Shown here piece by piece: positions 48,236 to 59,101 of a stretch of 64,000 nucleotides of DNA (the stretch's first letter is position 1; each line of letters opens with the position of its first letter). The notes below the pieces were generated by a model, which did not search any database, was not told the DNA's origin, and saw nothing but the letters and a program-made list of their open reading frames with translations. The stretch comes from Escherichia phage Ec_Makalu_003: sequence record MN882349.1; one strand, given 5' to 3'. A program made the position numbers and the translations under genes.

Positions 48236-48242
48236 TAAGCGA

Positions 48243-48274
48243 AAGGCGGGGGACAATCCCCCGCCTTTTTATTT
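48243..48274 (+). terminator. rho-independent terminator after gene 54
   Basis: Hairpin GGCGGGGG-ACAA-TCCCCCGCC followed by TTTTTATTTT; sits between convergent genes. Confidence 0.75.
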
Positions 48275-48754
48275 TGCTAAATCATTGCAATATTTTAGTG
48301 CCTTAGTTTGAAACTCTGCGCTGTTAAGTTCTTCATAACGGTCATAATCACCGTTTAATGCTGCCTTTCTTGCTTCTTGTTCTATCTGCATGTCAGACAT
48401 GATAATACAACGATCCCGCGATTTCATCTTCTCAAGTTGTATAGACTCTTCTTGTTGCTTGCGCAATTCTTCTTGATGCTTCTTTTCTTCTCGTGCTTTC
48501 TCTTCCCGCGCTTCTTTGATTGCATCTTTGAACATCTGCGTTTGTGGTGCTAAACCAACTTTAACGCGATCCACGTCTCGACGTTCCATTTTAGAAATAA
48601 AACATGATTCGATCTGGTCATCGCTTGCATATGCTGCTTTACATTCACGAAGCAAGAAAACCGGATCTGATTTAGCATTCATCATAGCTTCCATGTTAGT
48701 ACAACCAGTAAGCATGAATGCAGCCGCAAGACCAATCAGTTTAATCATTTTCAT
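48269..48754 (-). CDS. putative lipoprotein
   Basis: 161 aa; signal peptide with lipobox LTGC (MKMIKLIGLAAAFMLTGC); charged coiled-coil-like segment; SD GAGGTG. Confidence 0.65.
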   Translation of the reverse strand: MKMIKLIGLAAAFMLTGCTNMEAMMNAKSDPVFLLRECKAAYASDDQIESCFISKMERRDVDRVKVGLAPQTQMFKDAIKEAREEKAREEKKHQEELRKQQEESIQLEKMKSRDRCIIMSDMQIEQEARKAALNGDYDRYEELNSAEFQTKALKYCNDLAK

Positions 48755-49575
48755 TTAGTCACCTCACCGAAAATTGTAAATTGTCTACGATTCTCATCGC
48801 CGAAAGATTCTACTACGTCGTTTACCTTGATGCAAGTCCCGCGCGGTAAAATTACTTCACATTCGCAAGGATTCCATGCAATAGACCCAACAACAAAACC
48901 TTTATGATCTTTTACGTCAATTACCCATGATACATTACAAGAATGTTGCATCTTTCCGGTCATTGATTCATATCGATTCTCACAATAAAGGCTAGTGCTG
49001 TTTGAAAGCCATCCTCCAAAGATGATCGGTGTCATGCTGGTCGATACAAAGTTTTTAAAGGTAAATTCCTTATCTTCAATAATACGCTCTATTGTCTGAA
49101 TGTCAAGATGTTGACCGCGATAAAGAGTACCGTTTAACTTTTCGGTTTTATCCATGACACAATCCATCAAATCGACAATCTCTGATATCTCATCGGTCAT
49201 GTCTTCTTCCCCTAAGAGAGCACCATTTACCCATTCGTATTGTTCAGACACATAATCGCAGATTGCATTATATTCTGCTGGGGTTATGTTGTTATGTTTG
49301 TAATGTTTGAATACATTATCTCCAAAATCTTCGGAATGTACTTCATACATCACATTAATGATTTTCTTGACAAATCCATAATCTTGCGTTTCTCGCTCAA
49401 GGAAACGGATAACTTTCACGTAATCATCAAAGTTAATATGATCGCTGATCATTTCAGTGATCATGTAACCATTAATCCCCTCAATGCCATATGTTTCGAT
49501 GTAATTATCCATACGTTCCATCATTGATTCGCGTGATTCTTCGGAAAGGCGAAAATCCTGTAATTTCTTGAACAT
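48751..49575 (-). CDS. ADP-ribosyltransferase, Alt-like paralog
   Basis: 274 aa; R-S-E motifs (LYRGQ, FVSTSMTPIIFGGW, ECEVILPRG) parallel those in the Alt C-terminus. Confidence 0.7.
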   Translation of the reverse strand: MFKKLQDFRLSEESRESMMERMDNYIETYGIEGINGYMITEMISDHINFDDYVKVIRFLERETQDYGFVKKIINVMYEVHSEDFGDNVFKHYKHNNITPAEYNAICDYVSEQYEWVNGALLGEEDMTDEISEIVDLMDCVMDKTEKLNGTLYRGQHLDIQTIERIIEDKEFTFKNFVSTSMTPIIFGGWLSNSTSLYCENRYESMTGKMQHSCNVSWVIDVKDHKGFVVGSIAWNPCECEVILPRGTCIKVNDVVESFGDENRRQFTIFGEVTK

Positions 49576-49593
49576 TTTAAATCTCCCATATAA

Positions 49594-49628
49594 CAGAAAA
49601 CGGGGCTAGTATAAAACTAGTCCCCGTT
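49594..49628 (-). terminator. terminator-like hairpin after alt (minus strand)
   Basis: Imperfect hairpin AACGGGGACTAGTTTTATACTAGCCCCGTT followed by TTTTCTG on the minus strand. Confidence 0.5.
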
Positions 49629-49653
49629 TGAGTCAACCATTATTTCTTAAAAA

Positions 49654-51705
49654 TTACATTTTAAATTTATCCGGCATAGCGTCTACAGACACAAGATCAG
49701 CGATAAGCTGACGTAGAGTTGCCTTATCTGCTTTCTTACGTTCGGTTTTAGCTTCGGTAATGAAGCTGGAGAAAGACAGGTCAGAAGCAGGTTTAACAAC
49801 ACCTTCACGGATGAATGCATCACCGTCCGCGATCATCTCACCAGATTCTTGTAATGCTGCCAGTTCATTTTTGTTCATAATATGTGCCTCAATGTAATAA
49901 GTTTCTTGTGAATCCGTCGATGCCGTAGCACGAGTTACCGTATCAAAGGATAACACAACACCGCGAGGAAGTAAAATCTCGCATTCTTTGTAAGCAAATG
50001 CTTTGTTACCTACTGGCAATACAGGGATGTTTTCCGCGCCAGCAATGGAGAAAGCAACATTAGCGCCACCTTCACCGCGAGATCCAGCCATAGAATCAAC
50101 ACCAGCAACGGCACTAGCCACGTTTGCATTCCATCCACCAAAAATATTAGGTGCAAGGGAAGTGCTCACATAGTTTTTAAAGTAAAACGCTTTTTGCTTA
50201 CGTGCAGTTTCCCACATTTGAGAACGGAAGTCCATACCACGATACAAGATAGTACCTGGATCAAGTTTAACACCATAGTTAGCAAATGCGTTATCCAGTG
50301 CATCACACATCTTGACCAATTCTTCTGGGTCTGCGATGCCTTCAAACTCTTCCAGCTTACGGTCGGTTAGGAAGTTGTTCATATTGATGTATGCTGCATC
50401 CGCATATTCGCTCAACACAAAACCTTCCGCGCCAGGCAGATCAAGATCAATATCTGCCATCATTTCACCCATGTTGCTAGCAATTGCTTCAAACATACCG
50501 GAAGCAACATTACGCAGGGCATCGGTTTTAATCTGCGTGATGTGACTACGCAGCATTTCAGCTTTTACATCTGCTGGCATAGACTGGTCGACGCGATCCA
50601 TTGCCAGGGCGGTGATCTTGTTTTCGAATACTTCCTCGCTCATGATTTCTTTTAAGCGTTTGATTGATGCTGCGATAACTTCCGCAGACAACGGATCATA
50701 TTGATCCTGAACTTTTACCAGTTCGCTTACTGCATATTTTGCATCGGCTTCGCTTTCAAAAATAGTACGCATGAAACCATAGCGAGTGATAATATCACTT
50801 GTCCAGTCATTCAGAGAACGGGCGGTTGAACGTTCTAAGGCTTGACGGTCAATCAGAGTATTAAACTGTTTCTTAGGTTCTGCTTCGGTGATATCTTCTT
50901 CCGGTTTAAGATTAATTTTTTCTGGATGATTCACATAGTCGCTGTTATAGGTCGCTTGAGTTTTCAGCATTTCTTCTTTAGTCAAACGAGATTTAGCCGC
51001 TACGCGTTGTTCTGCTTCCGCGTTTCGTTCTTCTTCCGACACAAGACTAGCCGCATACGCCTCATCTTTAGTCAGAGATTCACCAGTAGCCTTAGATACC
51101 CAGCGATCACCTAAATCACTTTCTACTTTAGTGAACAGGGATTCATCGAGTTTAATCCCTTTAATCTTATCAATCGCCATCCCGCGACGTTTGACAACAA
51201 CTAAAGCGATCTTTTTGCTGGTCATTACTTCCTGCTGGAATACTTCAAACTTCGGTGTACGACGCACCAAACGCTCTATAACGCGCTTAACCAGTTCGGT
51301 CTTACCTTTCATGCGGGATACGTTAAAACGGAACATAACAGCGTCTAATTGCGCTTTACGGGCTGTTTCCATGACCACATCAAAAGCACTTGACATAACT
51401 GCAATCGGGTTATCTCCTAGACCATTTTTAAGCTGTACAATACGACCGCTTTTGTTCATTTCGCACAGTACAACATGTGCGGTCTTGTCACCCATACGAA
51501 TGATTTTAGGTGTTTTGTTGGTGAAGTTACAAAGACGGACAATCACATCTTTATCGCGTGTCTGTACTGCAAAAAGCTGTTTAGGATTCTGCTTAGGCTT
51601 TAAGCACTGTACCGGAGCAATACTGCCAAAGTTTTCTTCCTCTTCCGTCAACAGCCATTTCTCGAAAGATTCAATCATTAGATCGTCGATTTCTAAGTTA
51701 AACAT
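49654..51705 (-). CDS. alt: ADP-ribosyltransferase Alt
   Basis: 683 aa (T4 Alt 682 aa); C-terminal domain with ILYRGMD, NYVSTSLAPNIFGGW, ECEILLPRG. Confidence 0.85.
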   Translation of the reverse strand: MFNLEIDDLMIESFEKWLLTEEEENFGSIAPVQCLKPKQNPKQLFAVQTRDKDVIVRLCNFTNKTPKIIRMGDKTAHVVLCEMNKSGRIVQLKNGLGDNPIAVMSSAFDVVMETARKAQLDAVMFRFNVSRMKGKTELVKRVIERLVRRTPKFEVFQQEVMTSKKIALVVVKRRGMAIDKIKGIKLDESLFTKVESDLGDRWVSKATGESLTKDEAYAASLVSEEERNAEAEQRVAAKSRLTKEEMLKTQATYNSDYVNHPEKINLKPEEDITEAEPKKQFNTLIDRQALERSTARSLNDWTSDIITRYGFMRTIFESEADAKYAVSELVKVQDQYDPLSAEVIAASIKRLKEIMSEEVFENKITALAMDRVDQSMPADVKAEMLRSHITQIKTDALRNVASGMFEAIASNMGEMMADIDLDLPGAEGFVLSEYADAAYINMNNFLTDRKLEEFEGIADPEELVKMCDALDNAFANYGVKLDPGTILYRGMDFRSQMWETARKQKAFYFKNYVSTSLAPNIFGGWNANVASAVAGVDSMAGSRGEGGANVAFSIAGAENIPVLPVGNKAFAYKECEILLPRGVVLSFDTVTRATASTDSQETYYIEAHIMNKNELAALQESGEMIADGDAFIREGVVKPASDLSFSSFITEAKTERKKADKATLRQLIADLVSVDAMPDKFKM

Positions 51706-51746
51706 TTTATATCCTCTAGTTGATAACCTATAAACCTATATTTATG

Positions 51747-51771
51747 AAAAAGGGGCTTAACACCCCCATTT
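51747..51771 (-). terminator. rho-independent terminator (minus strand)
   Basis: Hairpin GGGGGTGTTAAGCCCC followed by TTTTT on the minus strand. Confidence 0.6.
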
Positions 51772-52021: not shown

Positions 52022-52050
52022 ATTATGATATACACCCTCTGTTATGTCAA
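52022..52050 (-). promoter_or_regulatory. repeated early promoter cassette C1 (TTGACA-17-CATAAT)
   Basis: Minus-strand -35 TTGACA, 17-nt spacer, -10 CATAAT; inverted repeat GGGTGTAT/ATACACCC spans the -10; conserved leader and AGGAG SD. Confidence 0.6.
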
Positions 52051-52056
52051 CAACTT

Positions 52057-52236
52057 TTAGAACATTTTTGAAATTAATTCTGCTTTGATTTCGCAGAGAA
52101 CATCTAAAGATTTCTCGTCACCCGCTTTTGCTGCTTCTGCTTGCATTTTTGAAATGGCTTCAATGTCAGTGCAATTATAAGCCGCTTGAACTTTAGCGAT
52201 TGCGATGATTGCCGATTCGATGGTTAAGTGTTTCAT
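52057..52236 (-). CDS. hypothetical small protein (59 aa)
   Basis: Minus-strand ORF preceded by cassette C2 with SD AGGAG; below track cut-off. Confidence 0.5.
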   Translation of the reverse strand: MKHLTIESAIIAIAKVQAAYNCTDIEAISKMQAEAAKAGDEKSLDVLCEIKAELISKMF

Positions 52237-52268
52237 GTTTGATTCTCCTTTCGTTTCGGTATGTGTGC

Positions 52269-52297
52269 AGTATAGGGGATCGCCGATCCCCTGTCAA
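52269..52297 (-). promoter_or_regulatory. repeated early promoter cassette C2 (TTGACA-17-TATACT)
   Basis: The 17-nt spacer is the perfect palindrome GGGGATCGGCGATCCCC; same cassette as C10. Confidence 0.6.
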
Positions 52298-52304
52298 CAA
52301 CTTT

Positions 52305-52823
52305 TTAGTTATTTTTTAATTGCTCATCTTGCAATAATGCAATCACATGCTGGCGATGTTCTTCCGATTGAGGAACACCGAAAAAGTTTGTTTTGTAGAA
52401 ATACTCTAATCGGTCTTCTCGTGTGCTCTCTTCCATCATGATCGCGGGTAGTCCAAGATTTCGGAAACGTCGCTTTTCTGCTGGCGTAAAATCACTGTAA
52501 TACAACATAGAATCATCATTACCAGCAATGCTAAACTCATCCTTCATAAAGGAGAATATTGCGTTTAAACGCTGTTTACCGTCCACGATTTCGATCTCAT
52601 AGCGAGAGCCATCATCAATCTTAGCCATTGCGATAGCACCAACCGGAAAATCATTAATCAGGTTTTCGATAAACATACGTTTGTTTTCGGTGTCCCATAC
52701 CAAAGGACGCTGATAATCTGGGTTCATGTTGATATAGCCATCTTCTAACCACGCCTCATAAACAGAGATGACAAAGTTTTTAGTATTGGTATAGTAACGG
52801 CGTTTAGGCGTTAAACGGTTCAT
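52305..52823 (-). CDS. DUF262-like (ParB/Srx-fold) protein
   Basis: 172 aa from ATG 52823 (SD AGGAG); DYQRPLVW and VDGKQRL resemble the DUF262 N-terminal motifs (DGQQR type); last gene of a five-gene operon. Confidence 0.55.
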   Translation of the reverse strand: MNRLTPKRRYYTNTKNFVISVYEAWLEDGYINMNPDYQRPLVWDTENKRMFIENLINDFPVGAIAMAKIDDGSRYEIEIVDGKQRLNAIFSFMKDEFSIAGNDDSMLYYSDFTPAEKRRFRNLGLPAIMMEESTREDRLEYFYKTNFFGVPQSEEHRQHVIALLQDEQLKNN

Positions 52824-52824
52824 G

Positions 52825-53157
52825 TTATAGTCTCCTGAATGGATCATCACGTAAATCAATATCTTTTAAGAACTCATCCCATGAATGGCGGATAATGTTC
52901 TTAATTCTCCAGATAAGCGCAGGGATTGAACGCTCTCCCATCTGGAAGTAAGGATCATATGATCCATATGCCCAATATGCTACTACAATTCCACAATCGG
53001 CGCAATAATATTCTATTTCACTTGCTGGCGACCAAAGTCCATCAATATGATCACGGATCTTGCTTTCGATGTTATGGCTATGGCAATCAGGGCAACGGAT
53101 GCAATGACCTTGTTTATCGTAATTTGACGTTAGCGAATACTTAAACAATCTCATCAT
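52825..53157 (-). CDS. zinc-ribbon protein
   Basis: 110 aa; CIRCPDC ... CADCG (CxxC...CxxC); start overlaps upstream stop. Confidence 0.55.
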   Translation of the reverse strand: MMRLFKYSLTSNYDKQGHCIRCPDCHSHNIESKIRDHIDGLWSPASEIEYYCADCGIVVAYWAYGSYDPYFQMGERSIPALIWRIKNIIRHSWDEFLKDIDLRDDPFRRL

Positions 53158-53870
53158 AGATCCTTATTGGCTTCAAATACTGCCTTTGCGAATCCTCGCG
53201 GGGTAAGTGACCTGATAGTCTTTGTTCTGGTTCCTTTCCCGCCTAGCTTAGAATGCTGTTTACTGTACCCTTTATTAATCTGCAACGGTTTCTTTTCTGG
53301 CATTATAAAGCCTTGTCCGGTCCATAAGCAAGTCTTTTTCGGGTACATATCACGGGCGGCAATATACTCAGGAAACGTAGGATGCTTATCATCTTCCGGC
53401 AAATAACCGCCATATTCCCACGGATGGAACATGTAATCAGGCTTACGCCACATGCTAGAGATAACGCTTACAGGATTCTCTATCATGTAGGGAACTCCTA
53501 GCCATTCACCCAAATAAGCGGTTATTTTAGCTGCCCTTACATCATGAACTTGAATTAATGGTCCTTGTTCTCGTTTCTTTCGTTCAAAGTGCGCAGCGCC
53601 ACTAACAGCTAAATTGGTGCATGGTGGGAATGCAAAGATAATATCCGGTTTCCCCCATTCAAGGTCCATTGCTCTTTCCAGCCAATTTAAATCAATCCAT
53701 GTGTTTACATATGTAATGTTTGGATGTTCAAATCTGGTATTATATTTTTTGTATGTACCGTGGTCGCCATCGTCAGCATTAAAGCAGATCACCTTATGAC
53801 CTGCTTTAGCCCATTCTAACCCCATTATCCCCGATCCGTCAAAGTTGCAGAATATTAATTTTTGTTTCAT
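53154..53870 (-). CDS. C5-cytosine DNA methyltransferase-like protein (compact)
   Basis: 238 aa; motif I-like LIFCNFDGSGIMGLEWAKAGHKVICFNADD, motif IV-like IIFAFPPCTNLAVSG (Pro-Cys), motif VI-like MIENP; region after motif VI too short for a typical target-recognition domain. Confidence 0.55.
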   Translation of the reverse strand: MKQKLIFCNFDGSGIMGLEWAKAGHKVICFNADDGDHGTYKKYNTRFEHPNITYVNTWIDLNWLERAMDLEWGKPDIIFAFPPCTNLAVSGAAHFERKKREQGPLIQVHDVRAAKITAYLGEWLGVPYMIENPVSVISSMWRKPDYMFHPWEYGGYLPEDDKHPTFPEYIAARDMYPKKTCLWTGQGFIMPEKKPLQINKGYSKQHSKLGGKGTRTKTIRSLTPRGFAKAVFEANKDL

Positions 53871-54112
53871 ATACGCCCCTTTAACCCAACACAGATTTTA
53901 GAAGGTTCTTTGCCGTGCCACATTAAGTAAATTCCGTTAATGCGTCCTTGTTTTGTATATGATTCTTTTCTGATCTTCTTATAGTGTCGTGCTTCCTCAG
54001 CCGATTGTTTAGAATGTCGATCATAAAGGAAGAGGAACAAAGGCCAACCATTAGCGGCCTTAATGCAGTTATTCAAAAATTCCTTATTTCGTTTAATTAA
54101 TTTTCTTTTCAC
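53867..54112 (-). CDS. hypothetical basic protein
   Basis: 81 aa; GTG start overlapping the upstream stop; Lys/Arg-rich. Confidence 0.45.
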   Translation of the reverse strand: MKRKLIKRNKEFLNNCIKAANGWPLFLFLYDRHSKQSAEEARHYKKIRKESYTKQGRINGIYLMWHGKEPSKICVGLKGRI

Positions 54113-54360
54113 GCTGCCCCCATTGGTTTGATAGTAACAGAATCTAAAAGACCTTTGTTAGCCAGTTCGCGGCAAGTTTTCAGATCCGCAACTTCCCAGC
54201 CAGCCGCAATAAGGTTATCAATGAGGCTGTTAGCAACTTCTTCGCTCATGAAAGAGCACTGTTTGCCGATGGTGTAGCGTACACGCTGTAATTTCAGTTT
54301 ACGGAAGCCTTTAACGTTCAGGTCTTTAGCGATTTTCTTTGCGGTTTCGATGTTAGCCAT
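54109..54360 (-). CDS. hypothetical protein
   Basis: 83 aa; starts MANIE; first gene after cassette C3. Confidence 0.55.
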   Translation of the reverse strand: MANIETAKKIAKDLNVKGFRKLKLQRVRYTIGKQCSFMSEEVANSLIDNLIAAGWEVADLKTCRELANKGLLDSVTIKPMGAA

Positions 54361-54400
54361 TGTTTGATTCTCCTAAGTGGTATCTCGTCTTGATGGTTGT

Positions 54401-54429
54401 ATTGTAGGGGAGTTATCCTCCCCTGTCAA
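54401..54429 (-). promoter_or_regulatory. repeated early promoter cassette C3 (TTGACA-17-TACAAT)
   Basis: Spacer is the palindrome GGGGAGGATAACTCCCC; SD AGGAG downstream. Confidence 0.6.
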
Positions 54430-54443
54430 CACTTTTTATAAAA

Positions 54444-54611
54444 TTATTTGTTAATTTCTGGTGCGTTGCTAGGATAGTAACCTTCTTTAACTCCGAGGTA
54501 TTTTGCAACCATCCCTACAATCTTCTGTGCTACTACAATGTCAAATTTCAGATAATCTTCGCCGTGGGTTTCAATGATATATGCTTCACATGCTGCTTTA
54601 GTCTCGAACAT
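54444..54611 (-). CDS. hypothetical small protein (55 aa), paralog of 57726-57893
   Basis: MFETKAACEAYIIETHGEDYLKFDIVVAQKIVGMVAKYLGVKEGYYPSNAPEINK; near-identical to the ORF at 57726-57893. Confidence 0.55.
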   Translation of the reverse strand: MFETKAACEAYIIETHGEDYLKFDIVVAQKIVGMVAKYLGVKEGYYPSNAPEINK

Positions 54612-54644
54612 TTTGATTCTCCTATTTCGTTTCGGTATGTGTGT

Positions 54645-54673
54645 ATTATAGGGGATCTCCCGATCCCCGTCAA
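54645..54673 (-). promoter_or_regulatory. repeated early promoter cassette C4 (TTGACG-17-TATAAT)
   Basis: Palindromic spacer GGGATCGGGAGATCCCC; SD AGGAG downstream. Confidence 0.6.
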
Positions 54674-54687
54674 CAACTTTTTTAAAA

Positions 54688-54969
54688 TTATTCGTGATTA
54701 GTTTCGATATTGTGCATTTTGCACCAGTTCAGCCAATCGCCAAGATCTTGATAGTTGATGCTTTTATCTGCTGCCATCGTTTTTGTCTTGATACCCATAT
54801 GTGCGTTATGAGTAAGCATTTTTACAGTGAACTCAATTTTATCGCCTTTAGCTTTAACATCAACCAGTTTGGTCCACTGGCTACCAGCACCGCGAATGTT
54901 CATACCAACGATGTTTCCGATGTATGCTTCTTTGTTGTTCAGGATTTCGGTTGCTTTGATGAATTTCAT
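54688..54969 (-). CDS. hypothetical protein
   Basis: 93 aa; preceded by cassette C5. Confidence 0.55.
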   Translation of the reverse strand: MKFIKATEILNNKEAYIGNIVGMNIRGAGSQWTKLVDVKAKGDKIEFTVKMLTHNAHMGIKTKTMAADKSINYQDLGDWLNWCKMHNIETNHE

Positions 54970-55002
54970 TTTTGATTCTCCAGTTCGTTTCGGTATGGGT
55001 GT

Positions 55003-55031
55003 ATTATGCTATGTTCTTACTTTGGTGTCAA
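55003..55031 (-). promoter_or_regulatory. repeated early promoter cassette C5 (TTGACA-17-CATAAT)
   Basis: Same -35/-10/leader/SD architecture as C1; no palindrome in the spacer. Confidence 0.55.
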
Positions 55032-55039
55032 CAACTTTT

Positions 55040-55309
55040 TTAGATATTTTCAGAAATAAATTTTAAAACTTGACGTAAATGTTTCTCATCTTTGATAGTC
55101 GCCGGAAGTTCTTCTTTTACTTCCTGTGCAAGATAGATATTTCCGTTCCAAGTGAAAGACCCGTCTTCGTTTACGCGATAGCTGAACATCCATTCGCAAT
55201 CATTTTCGATTTCATATACACACAGAAGGGTGTAATCTTCAAAGCTATTGATTTCAAGGTCGAAGCCGTGGCGTTTTGCAAAGTTGGTAGTGGTTTTAGT
55301 CAGTGCCAT
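55040..55309 (-). CDS. hypothetical protein
   Basis: 89 aa; preceded by cassette C6. Confidence 0.55.
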   Translation of the reverse strand: MALTKTTTNFAKRHGFDLEINSFEDYTLLCVYEIENDCEWMFSYRVNEDGSFTWNGNIYLAQEVKEELPATIKDEKHLRQVLKFISENI

Positions 55310-55348
55310 TGTTTGATTCTCCTAAGTGGTATCTCGTTTCGATGGGTG

Positions 55349-55377
55349 TATTATGCTATAGGCGTGATCAGGTGTCA
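55349..55377 (-). promoter_or_regulatory. repeated early promoter cassette C6 (TTGACA-17-CATAAT)
   Basis: Same architecture; immediately downstream of the terminator at 55403-55428. Confidence 0.55.
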
Positions 55378-55402
55378 ATGCCTTTTTTAAAATTTTATGC
55401 AA

Positions 55403-55428
55403 TAAAAAAGCCGACACTAAGGTCGGCT
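55403..55428 (-). terminator. rho-independent terminator (minus strand)
   Basis: Hairpin AGCCGACCTTAGTGTCGGCT followed by TTTTTT on the minus strand. Confidence 0.65.
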
Positions 55429-55435
55429 AATAAAA

Positions 55436-55744
55436 TCATTTAGACAAATAATCATTCAGTGCAATCCGGTCGGCATGTTCCGGCGTTACATCAATCGCAA
55501 TCACTTTAACGCGTGCTTTCTTGCGACCTGGGTTTTCTCGTAACCAGTGCTCATGACCGTGAACATTTTTATACTGCGATGCTTCTTCGAAGGTACGGAT
55601 CGGACCAGGGTAATCAGCGTAAAGGATCTCTAGGTCATCGGTGATGTAAAAATATACGTTGTAATTACTGTTCTCTAGCTTAAGCAGAGACTTTCGGAAC
55701 ATTGGGAGATTTTCGCGGGTAAATTCAAAAGTAATATCTTTCAT
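55436..55744 (-). CDS. HxHW-motif small protein family member
   Basis: 102 aa from ATG 55744 (SD GAGGAT); YFYITDDLEILYADY ... HGHEHWL ... VKVIAIDV. Confidence 0.55.
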   Translation of the reverse strand: MKDITFEFTRENLPMFRKSLLKLENSNYNVYFYITDDLEILYADYPGPIRTFEEASQYKNVHGHEHWLRENPGRKKARVKVIAIDVTPEHADRIALNDYLSK

Positions 55745-55766
55745 AGTATTATCCTCAATAGTTGGA

Positions 55767-55788
55767 TGAAAAGGGGGCTTAACGCCCC
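55767..55788 (-). terminator. terminator-like hairpin (minus strand)
   Basis: Hairpin GGGGCGTTAAGCCCCC followed by TTTTC on the minus strand. Confidence 0.5.
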
Positions 55789-55793
55789 ATATA

Positions 55794-56081
55794 TTAAAAC
55801 AGTCCTTCCTGTACACCGTAGTAGAGTTCGTCGCTGATAATTTCATTAATGCGACGGTGTGCATATTCCTGATTTGCGAAGTTGTCAGCAAGTTCTACTT
55901 TAGTTTCACCGTCATGAGTCCATTTAGTGATAACTTTACCATCTGCAAATTTGAAGTTGAACTCTTTAGCTACTGCATCGCGTACCAGACGTGCGAACTT
56001 GTTGTTACGGATTGCATTATCGGTTTCGTGTGCAGCGTGAGCAAATTTGTTAACTTTCAGAGTGATAGTGATGTATGCCAT
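55794..56081 (-). CDS. hypothetical protein
   Basis: 95 aa; preceded by cassette C7. Confidence 0.55.
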   Translation of the reverse strand: MAYITITLKVNKFAHAAHETDNAIRNNKFARLVRDAVAKEFNFKFADGKVITKWTHDGETKVELADNFANQEYAHRRINEIISDELYYGVQEGLF

Positions 56082-56127
56082 AATTTGATTCTCCTAGTTA
56101 GAAAGTGTATCTCGTTTCGATGGGTGT

Positions 56128-56156
56128 ATTATGCTATACACCCGATCTTATGTCAA
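56128..56156 (-). promoter_or_regulatory. repeated early promoter cassette C7 (TTGACA-17-CATAAT)
   Basis: Inverted repeat GGGTGTAT/ATACACCC spans the -10, as in C1. Confidence 0.6.
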
Positions 56157-56163
56157 CACTTTT

Positions 56164-56442
56164 TTATAAAATAATTTTTTGATATTTTTCTATGATGTTT
56201 GTGTAATCCACATCAACCGCTATCACCGTTGCTTCGAATCCACCGTTTAGCCAATGGCTATGGTCATGATCGTGAAAGAAACCAAGACCAGTACGAAGAC
56301 CTTCTTTATATTCGGCGCGTACATTTAGATCATCATCGATAAACAGATAAAACCATGAATTTTTACTAGGATTGATGATACAACCTTTCAGATTAGGGAG
56401 AATATCACGACTAAGAATAAACTTATCACCTACTTTGAACAT
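56164..56442 (-). CDS. HxHW-motif small protein family member
   Basis: 92 aa from ATG 56442 (SD GAGGA); WFYLFIDDDLNVRAEY ... HDHDHSHWL ... VIAVDV. Confidence 0.55.
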   Translation of the reverse strand: MFKVGDKFILSRDILPNLKGCIINPSKNSWFYLFIDDDLNVRAEYKEGLRTGLGFFHDHDHSHWLNGGFEATVIAVDVDYTNIIEKYQKIIL

Positions 56443-56446
56443 AATA

Positions 56447-56767
56447 TTAGTCCTCACTTATAAGGTCAAACCAATTGTTTTTCGCATAATGCTTAATGCG
56501 TGCTTGATCTGCTTCCGCTGGTGATAGATTCCATGCAACCACTACAACTTCTGACGCGTCGTCATCCGTTTCTGATACCCAATGATTGTGATTCATACAG
56601 TTATTTGCGATCGAGTGAGCAAATGATTTCATCACTGGAGACGTATAATCATAGTAACGGATTTTCAGATTTTCATCAACATACAAGTAGATCGTATAAG
56701 GTTTATATTCAGTAACCAGTAACAGACAGTTACGCAATTCTGGGAAAATCTTTTTAGTTAATTTCAT
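56447..56767 (-). CDS. HxHW-motif small protein family member
   Basis: 106 aa from ATG 56767; YTIYLYVDENLKIRYYDY ... HNHW ... VVVVAW. Confidence 0.5.
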   Translation of the reverse strand: MKLTKKIFPELRNCLLLVTEYKPYTIYLYVDENLKIRYYDYTSPVMKSFAHSIANNCMNHNHWVSETDDDASEVVVVAWNLSPAEADQARIKHYAKNNWFDLISED

Positions 56768-56768
56768 T

Positions 56769-56987
56769 TTATAATCCTCGGTCGCGGCTATAGTACACGG
56801 TACGCCATACAATTTCATGTTTCGTGTCGCTCCAGCACACGATCTCATTTACTCTTAAATCTTTGTTATCAACAAAAGATGAACATTGTGACGCTTCTTT
56901 CATCATTTTATCTGCTGTTTTCTCATCAAATACAGCACAGATTTCTTTATACACTCGATAATCTTTGAATTGACTCTGGATACCCAT
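56769..56987 (-). CDS. hypothetical protein, tandem paralog of 56947-57204
   Basis: About 72 aa; SQFKDYRVYKEICAVFDEKTADKMMKEASQCSSF parallels the upstream ORF; start uncertain (56987 or 56999). Confidence 0.45.
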   Translation of the reverse strand: MGIQSQFKDYRVYKEICAVFDEKTADKMMKEASQCSSFVDNKDLRVNEIVCWSDTKHEIVWRTVYYSRDRGL

Positions 56988-57204
56988 AATTAACACCATT
57001 CCAACCAATTGTTTTTGAGAAAACGTTTATCCACTGTTGAGTGTAGCATGTTTCTTTCCATGATACAATACGAGTAGAATAATGGTTTTTGTTTCCAGAA
57101 AAGGACGGGCATTTTGATGCATCTTCCATCATCTTTTCGGCGAACTCCGCGTCATATACCCGCAGGATCTGTTGATATGCTTTATAATCTTTAAATTTGC
57201 TCAT
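56947..57204 (-). CDS. hypothetical protein, tandem paralog of 56769-56987
   Basis: 85 aa; MSKFKDYKAYQQILRVYDAEFAEKMMEDASKCPSF. Confidence 0.5.
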   Translation of the reverse strand: MSKFKDYKAYQQILRVYDAEFAEKMMEDASKCPSFSGNKNHYSTRIVSWKETCYTQQWINVFSKTIGWNGVNYGYPESIQRLSSV

Positions 57205-57469
57205 AATTGTTAACTACCTTATCAGCTTCTTTTATTGTTTTTACATCAACTGCGATAATCCGTAAAGGTTCGTCGAAGGTCCACCAGTGGTCATGAATAT
57301 CAGCTTGTGATTTATCACCAAAGGAATCACGAATATCATTTTTACATTTATAGCTAATATGGCCTTCATAGTCAACATAAAGGTAATTATCGAAAATCGG
57401 AGTTTTTAAGATCATACCGAAAAATCTTTCTTTGTGTGTCTTATCAAGTGTTGCAGTAATTCGCATCAT
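57191..57469 (-). CDS. HxHW-motif small protein family member
   Basis: 92 aa; SD GAGGA; NYLYVDYEGHISY ... HDHWW ... RIIAVDV. Confidence 0.55.
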   Translation of the reverse strand: MMRITATLDKTHKERFFGMILKTPIFDNYLYVDYEGHISYKCKNDIRDSFGDKSQADIHDHWWTFDEPLRIIAVDVKTIKEADKVVNNYEQI

Positions 57470-57481
57470 AATATATTCCTC

Positions 57482-57661
57482 TTAGAAAGGGATGGTCATT
57501 TCTTGAGCTTGTACATTCTCGTTAGGATTAAACTTCATCCAACCGATATTGTCTACCAGCATATGTACATTTTTATCATATCCTACGTGAGTAGTCAACA
57601 CTAAATGTGCTTTACCTTCAACGATGATTTCCATGTACTTCTGAACTTCGATAGCTTTCAT
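57482..57661 (-). CDS. hypothetical small protein (59 aa)
   Basis: Minus-strand ORF directly downstream of cassette C8; below track cut-off. Confidence 0.45.
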   Translation of the reverse strand: MKAIEVQKYMEIIVEGKAHLVLTTHVGYDKNVHMLVDNIGWMKFNPNENVQAQEMTIPF

Positions 57662-57693
57662 TTTGATTCTCCGTTTGTTGTCTTGATGGGAGT

Positions 57694-57722
57694 ATCTTAC
57701 TACTCCCTTTAATCATTGTCAA
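57694..57722 (-). promoter_or_regulatory. repeated early promoter cassette C8 (TTGACA-17-TAAGAT, weak -10)
   Basis: Inverted repeat GGGAGTA/TACTCCC overlaps the -10 region. Confidence 0.45.
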
Positions 57723-57725
57723 CTA

Positions 57726-57893
57726 TTATTTGTTAATTTCTGGTGCGTTGCTCGGATAGTAACCTTCTTTAACACCCAGATATTTTGCAACCATTCCGGT
57801 GATCTTCTGTGCTACTACGATATCGAATTTCAGGTAGTCTTCACCGTGGTTTGCTACAATGTATGCTTCGCATTCTGCTTTAGTCTGGAACAT
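57726..57893 (-). CDS. hypothetical small protein (55 aa), paralog of 54444-54611
   Basis: MFQTKAECEAYIVANHGEDYLKFDIVVAQKITGMVAKYLGVKEGYYPSNAPEINK; the track start at 57929 extends into the promoter cassette. Confidence 0.55.
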   Translation of the reverse strand: MFQTKAECEAYIVANHGEDYLKFDIVVAQKITGMVAKYLGVKEGYYPSNAPEINK

Positions 57894-57927
57894 TTTTGAT
57901 TCTCCTATATCTCGTTGGTATGTGTGC

Positions 57928-57956
57928 ATTATAGGGGATCACCGATCCCCTGTCAA
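57928..57956 (-). promoter_or_regulatory. repeated early promoter cassette C9 (TTGACA-17-TATAAT)
   Basis: Palindromic spacer GGGGATCGGTGATCCCC. Confidence 0.6.
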
Positions 57957-57961
57957 CAACT

Positions 57962-58255
57962 TTATAATGCTTTATACGCGTATTTCATAAATTTGTCTGC
58001 CACTTCATTGGCATGTTCAGATTCTACGCCTGATTCGAGAACAATAGCTAGGTCGGTTTCGTCATTCCCGCCGTACCAATGATTTGATGTTCGATTTTTT
58101 TCAATTGGAAATTGGTCACTTTTATCTGTGCGACAAAATACATCTAAATGCTCGTCGATGTAAAAGATCCAATCTTCATAAAGAATAACGGTATTAGCAA
58201 GATTTTTATTGCCTTCAACGAAAGGTTCCGCGACAAATAGCTTAGTTTGTTCCAT
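57962..58255 (-). CDS. HxHW-motif small protein family member (divergent)
   Basis: 97 aa from ATG 58255 (SD GAGGAA); ILYEDWIFYIDEHLDVF ... SNHWYGG ... LAIVLESG. Confidence 0.5.
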   Translation of the reverse strand: MEQTKLFVAEPFVEGNKNLANTVILYEDWIFYIDEHLDVFCRTDKSDQFPIEKNRTSNHWYGGNDETDLAIVLESGVESEHANEVADKFMKYAYKAL

Positions 58256-58271
58256 AGTAATTTCCTCAAAA

Positions 58272-58463
58272 TTATACAGTTTCGTAAACTTCCCAATGTT
58301 CAGCGCCAACACGCTTAACGAAAAGGTTTTCTTTGATGTTATTCATAAACGTCTGGATGGATTTAATGCGGTTTGAAGGTTTCCATTCTTCGTTGGCATT
58401 GCGTCGATACATCATAACATTACCAGTTCGCTTATATTCAGCAACCATTTTAAGACCACACAT
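58272..58463 (-). CDS. hypothetical protein
   Basis: 63 aa; SD GAGGA. Confidence 0.5.
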   Translation of the reverse strand: MCGLKMVAEYKRTGNVMMYRRNANEEWKPSNRIKSIQTFMNNIKENLFVKRVGAEHWEVYETV

Positions 58464-58520
58464 AATATTATCCTCAATTTGTGGGAGAGTATTACCCCTC
58501 CCAATGATTGTTATGTTATA

Positions 58521-58841
58521 TCACACAAAATGGCGTGTCAATGCTTCTTTTGCGGTTCCGCTAAGACTTTCAATCTCGCCTGGCATAACATCAACCGCCA
58601 GAACTTCTACAACATCTTCGGACCCTAACCAGTGAGTATGGCCTTTGTAGAACTTGATAACCAGACCACCTTCCTCGTCCCATTTAACGCTATCGCTAGC
58701 CCACCACACATCACCGTCGATAAAGTTGATGTAAAGCACACTACGCCACATTGAATTAATTACTTTCAATACTGCGCCTTTCATCTCTTCCACGGTATGG
58801 TCTTCCATTTTGAAGACCTCACCTACCTGAACTTTTGCCAT
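58521..58841 (-). CDS. HxHW-motif small protein family member
   Basis: 106 aa; VLYINFIDGDVWWASD ... HTHWL ... VLAVDV. Confidence 0.55.
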   Translation of the reverse strand: MAKVQVGEVFKMEDHTVEEMKGAVLKVINSMWRSVLYINFIDGDVWWASDSVKWDEEGGLVIKFYKGHTHWLGSEDVVEVLAVDVMPGEIESLSGTAKEALTRHFV

Positions 58842-58858
58842 TTAGTCACCTCTCTTTA

Positions 58859-59038
58859 TTACATAACAATCACGCCAGCCGTTGAAAGTTGATGTTTCAA
58901 CTGAGCATTTTCTGCTACTGTCAAATCAATGATTTCTTGTGACGCTGCAATCATATAACCATTGGTGATATTGTTTTGCATCAGTTCAATGGTTTCTTCG
59001 TTGTAGCGGATTTTAGCGATGATTTCGTTGAAGTTCAT
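58859..59038 (-). CDS. hypothetical small protein (59 aa)
   Basis: MNFNEIIAKIRYNEETIELMQNN...; preceded by cassette C10; the track start at 59104 extends into the promoter. Confidence 0.5.
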   Translation of the reverse strand: MNFNEIIAKIRYNEETIELMQNNITNGYMIAASQEIIDLTVAENAQLKHQLSTAGVIVM

Positions 59039-59072
59039 AATTGATTCTCCTAGTTCGTTTCGGTATGTGTGC

Positions 59073-59101
59073 AGTATAGGGGATCGCCGATCCCCTGTCA
59101 A
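59073..59101 (-). promoter_or_regulatory. repeated early promoter cassette C10 (TTGACA-17-TATACT)
   Basis: Spacer GGGGATCGGCGATCCCC identical to C2; begins right after the HNH gene stop. Confidence 0.6.

Follow-up and report, generated by a model that had tools for sequence, protein, structure and literature searches.

A predicted late Alt enzyme and a putative early ADP-ribosyltransferase-lipoprotein operon in the alt region of a Krischvirus

The 64,000 nucleotides of Escherichia phage Ec_Makalu_003 analysed here (MN882349.1; hereafter the window, at its full length) belong to a Krischvirus, an RB49/Phi1-like coliphage of the T4 type, and contain the alt region of this phage. Three open reading frames (ORFs) of 683, 274 and 161 amino acids lie there on the minus strand and run convergent to the baseplate/tail-tube genes 48 and 54: alt (49654..51705), a gene for a short Alt-like ADP-ribosyltransferase (ART; 48751..49575) and a lipoprotein gene (48269..48754). 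The explanation that we favour, and consider on the whole probable, is that the three genes form two transcription units, with alt being expressed late and its product packaged, and the short ART and the lipoprotein being expressed early from an operon of their own. The 4-kb region is 99.8% identical to that of Escherichia phage Ec_Makalu_002, also a Krischvirus, and 97-98% identical to that of 56 other records.

We propose that Alt would be made late, packaged into the head via its N-terminal part and injected with the DNA, and that host proteins would be modified by it on their arginines during the first seconds after injection. The early operon would start at a combined terminator and sigma-70 promoter of the promoter-early stem-loop (PeSL) type and end at a bidirectional terminator. 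Its first product, which appears to be a truncated alt duplicate keeping the C3-like catalytic module only, would be made de novo early in infection, stay in the cytoplasm and add a second round of arginine-specific mono-ADP-ribosylation, directed at a target range of its own, in analogy to T4 ModA/ModB. Its second product, translated by coupling, would leave the cytoplasm through Sec, receive its lipid at Cys18 and be sorted to the outer membrane, where it would sit in the inner leaflet and expose a disulfide-stapled helical domain in the periplasm. The two proteins would be co-inherited and co-expressed without forming a physical pair, and the mature domain of the lipoprotein, a probable exchangeable allele cassette, may serve an envelope function in phage-phage or phage-host conflict.

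Alt and a short Alt-like ADP-ribosyltransferase

Judged from its sequence, the 683-amino-acid protein is a full-length ortholog of T4 Alt, a capsid-packaged arginine mono-ADP-ribosyltransferase. It matches PHROG 802 over its full length (E=1.3e-179), is 26.6% identical to T4 Alt over 695 amino acids (E=2.6e-61) and has the same length, and its gene adjoins genes 54/48 in the same position as in T4. The ART catalytic domain of the window's Alt (residues ~426-610; 49876..50430, minus strand) was delimited by the match of residues 426-610 to PF03496 (36.0 bits, E=5.6e-9; curated Pfam cut-off, 23.4 bits) and by the alignment with the short paralog, and it contains R489 (in LYRG), STS and ECE. The two phages differ in the ExE motif, which is ECE here and EME in T4, and the two proteins are only 27% identical overall. 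The ratio of nonsynonymous to synonymous substitution rates (dN/dS) of alt is 0.02. Antisense to the 5' part of alt runs a GTG-started ORF of 200 amino acids (51131..51733, plus strand) that is absent from the annotation of the records inspected and that we regard as a shadow ORF of a gene under strong constraint.

The 274-amino-acid protein also passes the PF03496 cut-off (58.1 bits, E=1e-15) and carries the catalytic module of Alt, aligning with the window's Alt at 37% identity over 109 residues (E=1e-16, far above chance) and with that of T4 at 31% identity (E=1.6e-23). An earlier note on this DNA, which gave the three ORFs the positions, sizes and strand stated above, had read the two enzymes as tandem paralogs of the R / STS / ExE type, and these matches bear it out. 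LYRG, (F/Y)VSTS..P.IFGGW and ECE are common to both enzymes; the longer pattern that the note proposed, ECE(I/V)LLPRG, holds for its ECE part but is off by one residue, since the short enzyme reads ECEVILPRG and Alt reads ECEILLPRG. The catalytic glutamates, which the note read in the short paralog as well, are indeed conserved: R153 (49119..49117), S178-T179-S180 (S178, 49044..49042), E238 (48864..48862) and E240 (48858..48856; all minus strand) are invariant in an alignment of nine sequences that reaches down to 23% identity, and the catalytic motifs are also kept in the more distant relatives L011 (ENE) and L012 (ECE).

The short ART belongs to the RB49ORF183c family (PHROG 15144), has no signal peptide and consists of an N-terminal helical region and a C3-like catalytic core. 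Its alignment to the Alt profile (674 positions) is confined to positions 331-602; it thus lacks the N-terminal ~330 residues of Alt, and it also lacks the C-terminal tail of ~70 residues (...MPDKFKM) that is common to Alt and longer Alt-like proteins. Its AlphaFold2 (AF2) model (predicted local distance difference test score, pLDDT, 83; predicted template modelling score, pTM, 0.80) matches Vis, C3bot, Certhrax and iota Ia/CDTa with E values of about 1e-9 to 1e-10 (best ~4e-10) and a probability of 1.0; as modelled, the protein has the ART fold. It shares both this fold and the R, STS, ExE signature with these C3-like/VIP2-type toxins (PF03496), but is phage-encoded and predicted to be intracellular, has no delivery domain and is 15-20% identical to them. 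In the C3/VIP2 clade, ExE in place of QxE indicates arginine specificity, and the short protein is most likely an arginine-specific ADP-ribosyltransferase, as predicted from these residues.

A truncated copy beside its parent gene could also be a decaying and functionless remnant of an alt duplication. There is precedent for this in T4, which carries at the same place a vestigial duplication of the first part of alt, and duplications next to alt are frequent in T4-like phages (PMC1524935; PMC13600099), with tandem copies at the same locus in 44RR (PMC1524935) and in SHFML-11 and 6phi13 (PMC13600099). The window resembles these phages in the tandem arrangement, but the T4 copy is a broken duplicate of the N-terminal part and the copies of 44RR and SHFML-11 are described as (near) full length, whereas the Krischvirus keeps the catalytic module only and keeps it under strong constraint. 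The dN/dS of the short ART gene is 0.03-0.12, similar to that of alt, and its ORF is intact and at least 97.8% identical in all 58 Krischvirus records, from which we conclude that the gene is not decaying. Relatives as distant as ~45% identity moreover retain its catalytic residues, a conserved promoter is dedicated to it and its fold is predicted with confidence, all of which makes a remnant like T4 alt.-1/alt.-2 scarcely credible. In T4 itself (L004, 2566..2951), alt.-1 matches residues 1-62 of Alt and alt.-2 residues 63-117, at 56-62% identity; this broken duplicate derives from the very part of Alt that is missing from the short paralog of the Krischvirus.

Homology of the short ART to ModA or ModB was considered and rejected, as the best BLASTP E values were 0.43 and 5.0; by tblastn, ModA matched weakly at 55145..55528 (E=2.8), which is put down to chance. 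The short enzyme thus differs from these proteins in having no detectable sequence similarity to them and in its descent, which is from Alt and not from a Mod protein. The likeness lies in the use predicted for the short ART: ModA and ModB are made early (PMC9697503), and the short ART would likewise be a small (~200-270 amino acids) R-S-ExE enzyme that an early promoter supplies once the DNA has been injected. A single modB-like gene, adjoining srd in synteny with T4, was found in the first 50 kb of the RB49 genome, a stretch that together with the part corresponding to the window covers about two thirds of it. Since Alt, the short ART and one Mod are present in the RB49 sequence read, the genus would have three ARTs, like T4 with its Alt, ModA and ModB, but in a different mix.

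Transcription signals of the two units

Upstream of alt on the minus strand (51739..51767), a terminator-like hairpin (51767..51751) is followed by the box CATAAATA (51746..51739), which matches the T4 late promoter TATAAATA at seven of eight positions. The hairpin is weak (z=-1.7), while the ATAAATA core of the box is kept in W115, GEC-3S, Whisky and the metagenomic relatives L007 and L008. T4 has a hairpin and TATAAATA in the same arrangement upstream of its alt, which is a late gene with a product found in the virion (PMC9697503). A small N-terminal peptide is removed from gpAlt of T4 by the prohead protease gp21 (PMC9958956); at the N-terminus of the window's Alt, a clean (L/I)-x-E site for gp21 could not be placed. 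We infer that Alt is late and packaged because it is an ortholog of T4 Alt and its gene is preceded by a terminator and (C)ATAAATA at the position of the T4 late promoter.

Between alt and the short ART gene, promoter scanning, folding and conservation point to a composite element of the PeSL type (49598..49636, minus strand). It consists of the sigma-70 hexamer TTGACT (49636..49631), a spacer of 17 nucleotides and TATACT (49613..49608), the last lying within a strong hairpin (49629..49598; -20.6 kcal/mol, z=-4.6) that is followed by TTTTCTG. This hairpin includes the -10 box and serves at the same time as terminator of alt. The promoter is annotated as a promoter in GEC-3S, and the relatives L007, L009 and L011, in which the ART is only ~45-48% identical, retain both hexamers and the hairpin, with bases changed in either arm of the stem. 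PeSL elements are known from RB49 and Phi1 (Arbiol et al. 2010, Comeau et al. 2014; PMC2839356, PMC4122927), and the element upstream of the short ART resembles them in combining a sigma-70 promoter with a GC-rich stem-loop and in being one of a repeated series across the window's early region. On the metagenomic contig L011 (1530..2345), the start assigned to the short ART by the gene caller falls within the promoter/hairpin (ATGATG in the -10 region); the true start is likely the ATG after GGGAGGTTCAAA, 12 codons downstream.

The rest of this series was seen as near-identical promoter/stem-loop cassettes in front of small ORFs at 52022..59101 (minus strand), which match the PeSLs of RB49/Phi1 (PMC2839356). 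Examples lie at 52297..52269, 52050..52022, 54673..54645, 56156..56128, 57956..57928 and 59101..59073, all on the minus strand. Two types of cassette can be told apart, one with AAGTTGTTGACAGGGGATCGGCGATCCCCTATACT... and a second with GGGTGTAT..ATACACCC.

The dedicated sigma-70 promoter, together with the missing N- and C-terminal parts of Alt, suggests that the short ART is early and non-packaged; it is in these same features that it departs from T4 Alt. Where the earlier note spoke of a "packaged or early" pair, the signals would fit one enzyme of each kind, Alt being late and packaged and the short ART early and non-packaged, and do not fit a single mode for both. Alternatively, both ARTs could be virion proteins, with the short one packaged and injected along with Alt: its gene adjoins late structural genes, late read-through from alt is possible, and head-packaged ARTs are numerous among phages (PMC9503650). 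However, the N-terminal ~330 residues that the short ART lacks include the stretch aligning with the T4 Alt N-terminus (residues 27-63 of the window's Alt match T4 alt.-1), the end at which gp21 removes a peptide in T4, the conserved C-terminal tail is missing as well, and the gene has its own promoter. We therefore regard joint packaging as unlikely and retain the assignment of the two enzymes to separate phases of infection.

The putative early operon is closed by an intrinsic, bidirectional terminator, which separates the lipoprotein gene from gene 54 running towards it (48241..48269, both strands). Its folding energies are -22.9 and -24.1 kcal/mol on the two strands (z=-4.3 and -5.7), and it is annotated on both strands in GEC-3S; an Rfam scan of the locus returned only sub-threshold matches, which correspond to this hairpin. 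Inside the operon, the stop codon of the ART gene and the start codon of the lipoprotein gene overlap in ATGA (48751..48754, minus strand), and the last codons of the ART (GAGGTG) provide the Shine-Dalgarno sequence of the lipoprotein gene, with GAGG 7 nucleotides upstream of its ATG. Overlapping or abutting junctions with GAGG/GGAG 7-10 nucleotides upstream of the start are kept in the relatives L007, L010, L011 and L012.

The lipoprotein and the exchange of its mature domain

Both the ATGA overlap and the LTGC lipobox on which the earlier note based its description of a coupled lipoprotein are present. The signal peptide and lipobox occupy codons 1-18 (48754..48701; Cys18 at 48703..48701) and read MKMIKLIGLAAAFM-LTG-C18, that is, a lysine-rich n-region, a hydrophobic core and the lipobox L15-T16-G17-C18, of which G17-C18 is invariant in 12 family members. 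Some alleles (L010, 2712..3224; L013, 1501..2016; P0050) have an unusual Asn at lipobox position -2 (MLNGC, MINGC) with Gly-Cys kept. A PROSITE-like lipobox rule, applied to 339 ORFs of the window, matched four of them, namely the 161-amino-acid ORF, which has homologues, and three of 55-74 amino acids; the former is taken to be the sole real gene among the four. By the Lol rule of E. coli, Thr or Ala at position +2 leads to outer-membrane sorting, and the lipoprotein, with Thr or Ala at +2, is predicted to be sorted there.

The mature domain has four invariant cysteines (C38, C51, C116, C156), which would be consistent with two periplasmic disulfides. Its AF2 model (pLDDT 86.6) is all helical, with a long helix of ~60 residues at 72-133. 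The family (PHROG 16112) is phage-only, all its members have 155-174 amino acids, and it amounts to 41 clusters in 5.8 billion proteins and 10 representatives in 1.84 billion. Searches of Pfam, NCBIfam and PADLOC gave nothing significant, Foldseek against PDB and BFVD gave no neighbour outside the family itself, and we found no study of the Krischvirus lipoprotein in the literature. A relationship to T4 alt.-1, alt.-2 or alt.-3 was rejected, there being no similarity. The protein was likewise rejected as a spanin: it is helical, with 161 amino acids and an end (...YCNDLAK) that has no hydrophobic segment or C-terminal membrane helix, the upstream gene encodes a soluble ART and not an adjacent i-spanin partner, and the operon is driven by an early promoter.

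The lipoprotein gene is strictly linked to the short ART gene. Outside the genus, each of the five relatives read (of which three are near-identical contigs) has it directly downstream of that gene, and the order Alt, short ART, lipoprotein, convergent gp54/gp48 is kept there wherever the contig is long enough, down to 23% lipoprotein identity. Within the genus, by contrast with the ART, which is 98-99% identical, the mature domain of the lipoprotein is only ~30% identical in eight genomes; a further class of lipoprotein alleles stands at ~82%. Homology breaks and a jump in synonymous divergence (dS) delimit an exchangeable cassette that corresponds to the coding part of the mature domain (48285..48717, minus strand) and is swapped whole among phages that elsewhere share ~97-98% identity. 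The break falls at 48698 in both Whisky and L010, which are two independent comparisons, while in phage 011D4 only 48717..48285 is replaced and both flanks are 97-98% identical. At the junction dS rises about ten-fold, from ~0.15 in the ART to ~1.4-1.5 in the lipoprotein, where it is saturated, so that the dN/dS of the lipoprotein alleles is uninformative. The sharp breakpoints and the ten-fold jump in dS argue for an exchange of old alleles over fast local evolution, with the conserved signal-peptide codons and the terminator as the likely recombination arms. In this respect the lipoprotein cassette is unlike the PeSL cassettes, as it is exchanged via these other short conserved flanks and not between two PeSLs.

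The linkage raises the question of partnership, and the earlier note had indeed suggested a membrane-anchored partner of the ARTs in the lipoprotein. If this partnership is taken as a physical one, the lipoprotein would be an immunity or regulatory factor or a targeting subunit, and the coupling would reflect a two-protein machine; the family occurs only directly downstream of the short ART in every context examined, at identities as low as 23%, and the overlapping or abutting junction with its internal Shine-Dalgarno sequence is conserved. On the other hand, the compartments differ, as the lipoprotein has a signal peptide, a lipobox and four cysteines typical of the oxidising periplasm and the ART has no export signal. 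Interacting partners should also co-vary, whereas in the eight Krischvirus genomes the breakpoints lie inside the lipoprotein gene and the mature domain changes next to a nearly constant ART. Allele swapping at a constant ART and the difference in compartments disfavour a physical partnership, and the sequences thus argue against the ART and the lipoprotein being physical partners; we consider a two-protein machine very unlikely. Immunity proteins of ART toxins are cytoplasmic, as in Tre1-Tri1, and a toxin-immunity pair was rejected given that the downstream protein is exported and its alleles swap at an unchanged ART.

Two associations of the lipoprotein alleles with other phage proteins were also rejected. 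Co-variation with baseplate gp48/gp54, hinted at by the Whisky comparison, does not hold because four of the eight genomes with a divergent lipoprotein allele have standard gp48/54 (98-99% identity) and because 011D4 swaps the lipoprotein segment only. A match to the gp38 adhesin type, which would have indicated receptor masking, does not hold either, as both alleles occur with both adhesin types.

The role of the lipoprotein is the weakest step of our proposal. That it acts in envelope conflict, for example by blocking the entry of a superinfecting phage, is a guess, which we put forward as the likeliest of the roles considered without thinking it probable. A further reading, about which we are somewhat more doubtful, takes the early operon as an obligately linked two-compartment module, consisting of a cytoplasmic ART and a new family of outer-membrane-anchored, disulfide-stapled helical lipoproteins with mature domains that phages would trade as allele cassettes because they act at a conflict interface. 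Candidate interfaces would be allele-specific exclusion of related T4-like phages at the periplasmic entry stage or neutralisation of an envelope-based host defence. The closest functional models, Cor (T1/phi80/N15) and Llp (T5), are likewise phage-encoded lipoproteins, and the window's protein is predicted to be early, but the fold of its mature domain, helical with four Cys, is an orphan without structural neighbours, and no receptor link was found for it.

Comparable weight attaches to the alternative that the lipoprotein works in another envelope process, such as lysis timing, protection from lysis from without, outer-membrane stabilisation or interference with a periplasmic host defence, which we think improbable but far from negligible. 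It resembles no known exclusion lipoprotein, its alleles are not associated with adhesin or gp48/54 type, and a long helix with a coiled-coil-like charged segment would suit a spacer or binding protein. Against this, the protein is not spanin-like and appears from its promoter to be expressed early, Krischviruses already have Rz/Rz1 and rI, and the exchange of anciently diverged alleles would fit a conflict interface better than a housekeeping function.

Several observations weigh against our proposal of a late alt unit and an early operon with a lipoprotein acting in envelope conflict. The box upstream of alt, CATAAATA, departs from the consensus TATAAATA. The PeSL hairpin may terminate transcription incompletely, in which case read-through could lead to additional, late synthesis of the short ART and the lipoprotein. 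The analogy to ModA/ModB is functional only, in view of the lack of detectable similarity, and our survey of the literature found no virion proteome, transcriptome or enzymatic data for a Krischvirus. The strict linkage of ART and lipoprotein, with its conserved coupling, could reflect a hidden functional link. Finally, compared with Cor, Llp and Sp the lipoprotein has no similarity of sequence or fold, the only match to Cor being the signal peptide (Cor PHROG, E=0.008, residues 1-45); its alleles track neither gp38 adhesin type nor gp48/54 type and, being independent of both, lend no support to receptor masking or tail-tip co-evolution; and nothing found ties it to exclusion.

Neighbouring genes, prior annotation and significance

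Further features were noted on the minus strand upstream of alt. Four tandem small ORFs of 151, 97, 133 and 92 amino acids (55436..57469) are paralogs at 25-31% identity that share an invariant H-x-H-W and, after it, a V(I/V)A(V/I)D(V) segment; in Pfam they gave a single sub-threshold match and none at a curated cut-off. A phage-encoded protein of 184 amino acids (52305..52859), annotated as "DUF262 domain protein" in W115, has the N-terminal DUF262/GmrSD_N domain only (PF03235, E=5e-20) and lacks the nuclease half. An ORF of 238 amino acids (53154..53870) has no Pfam match and contains FPPC and ENP motifs, which we take to be reminiscent of motifs IV and VI of cytosine-5 methyltransferases.

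Much of the gene content of the alt region is already known. All three genes are annotated in GenBank and RefSeq: both enzymes are annotated as ADP-ribosyltransferases in Ec_Makalu_002, the names in public records being "Alt-like RNA polymerase ADP-ribosyltransferase" for the 683-amino-acid protein and "ADP-ribosyltransferase" for that of 274 amino acids, and the 161-amino-acid protein is named "putative lipoprotein" in one record, that of phage W115, the paper on which lists LipoP v1 in its methods for lipoprotein detection (PMC9355613). Its homolog in KFS-EC is named "Lipoprotein" in UniProt. The duplication was published in 2006, when Nolan et al. listed RB49ORF183c, apparently the short ART gene of the window, as a paralog arisen by duplication of alt beside it (PMC1524935). 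Such an ART pair is nothing unusual in T4-like phages, and this one has been described before. We regard three points as modestly new, namely the temporal split that promoters and domain content suggest for the two enzymes, the orphan lipoprotein family strictly linked to the short ART, and the cassette exchange of the mature domain of this lipoprotein. As the genes are already annotated, the value of these observations is that of a defined experimental lead and not of a discovery.

Phage ADP-ribosyltransferases are of current interest owing to the RNAylation by T4 ModB, the action of Alt on MazF, and AcrIF11. Krischviruses offer a natural contrast to T4 in this regard, with an Alt-derived module apparently turned into an early enzyme and one Mod only in the sequence read, and the targets of the short ART would show how target range evolves after duplication. 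The lipoprotein represents an orphan family with a clean signature of cassette exchange, and, as it occurs in phages with therapeutic use, it offers an inexpensive candidate for screens of exclusion or envelope phenotypes. A specialist would find neither point surprising. If true, however, the more tentative reading of the operon as a two-compartment module would mean a new class of phage exclusion or anti-defence factor.

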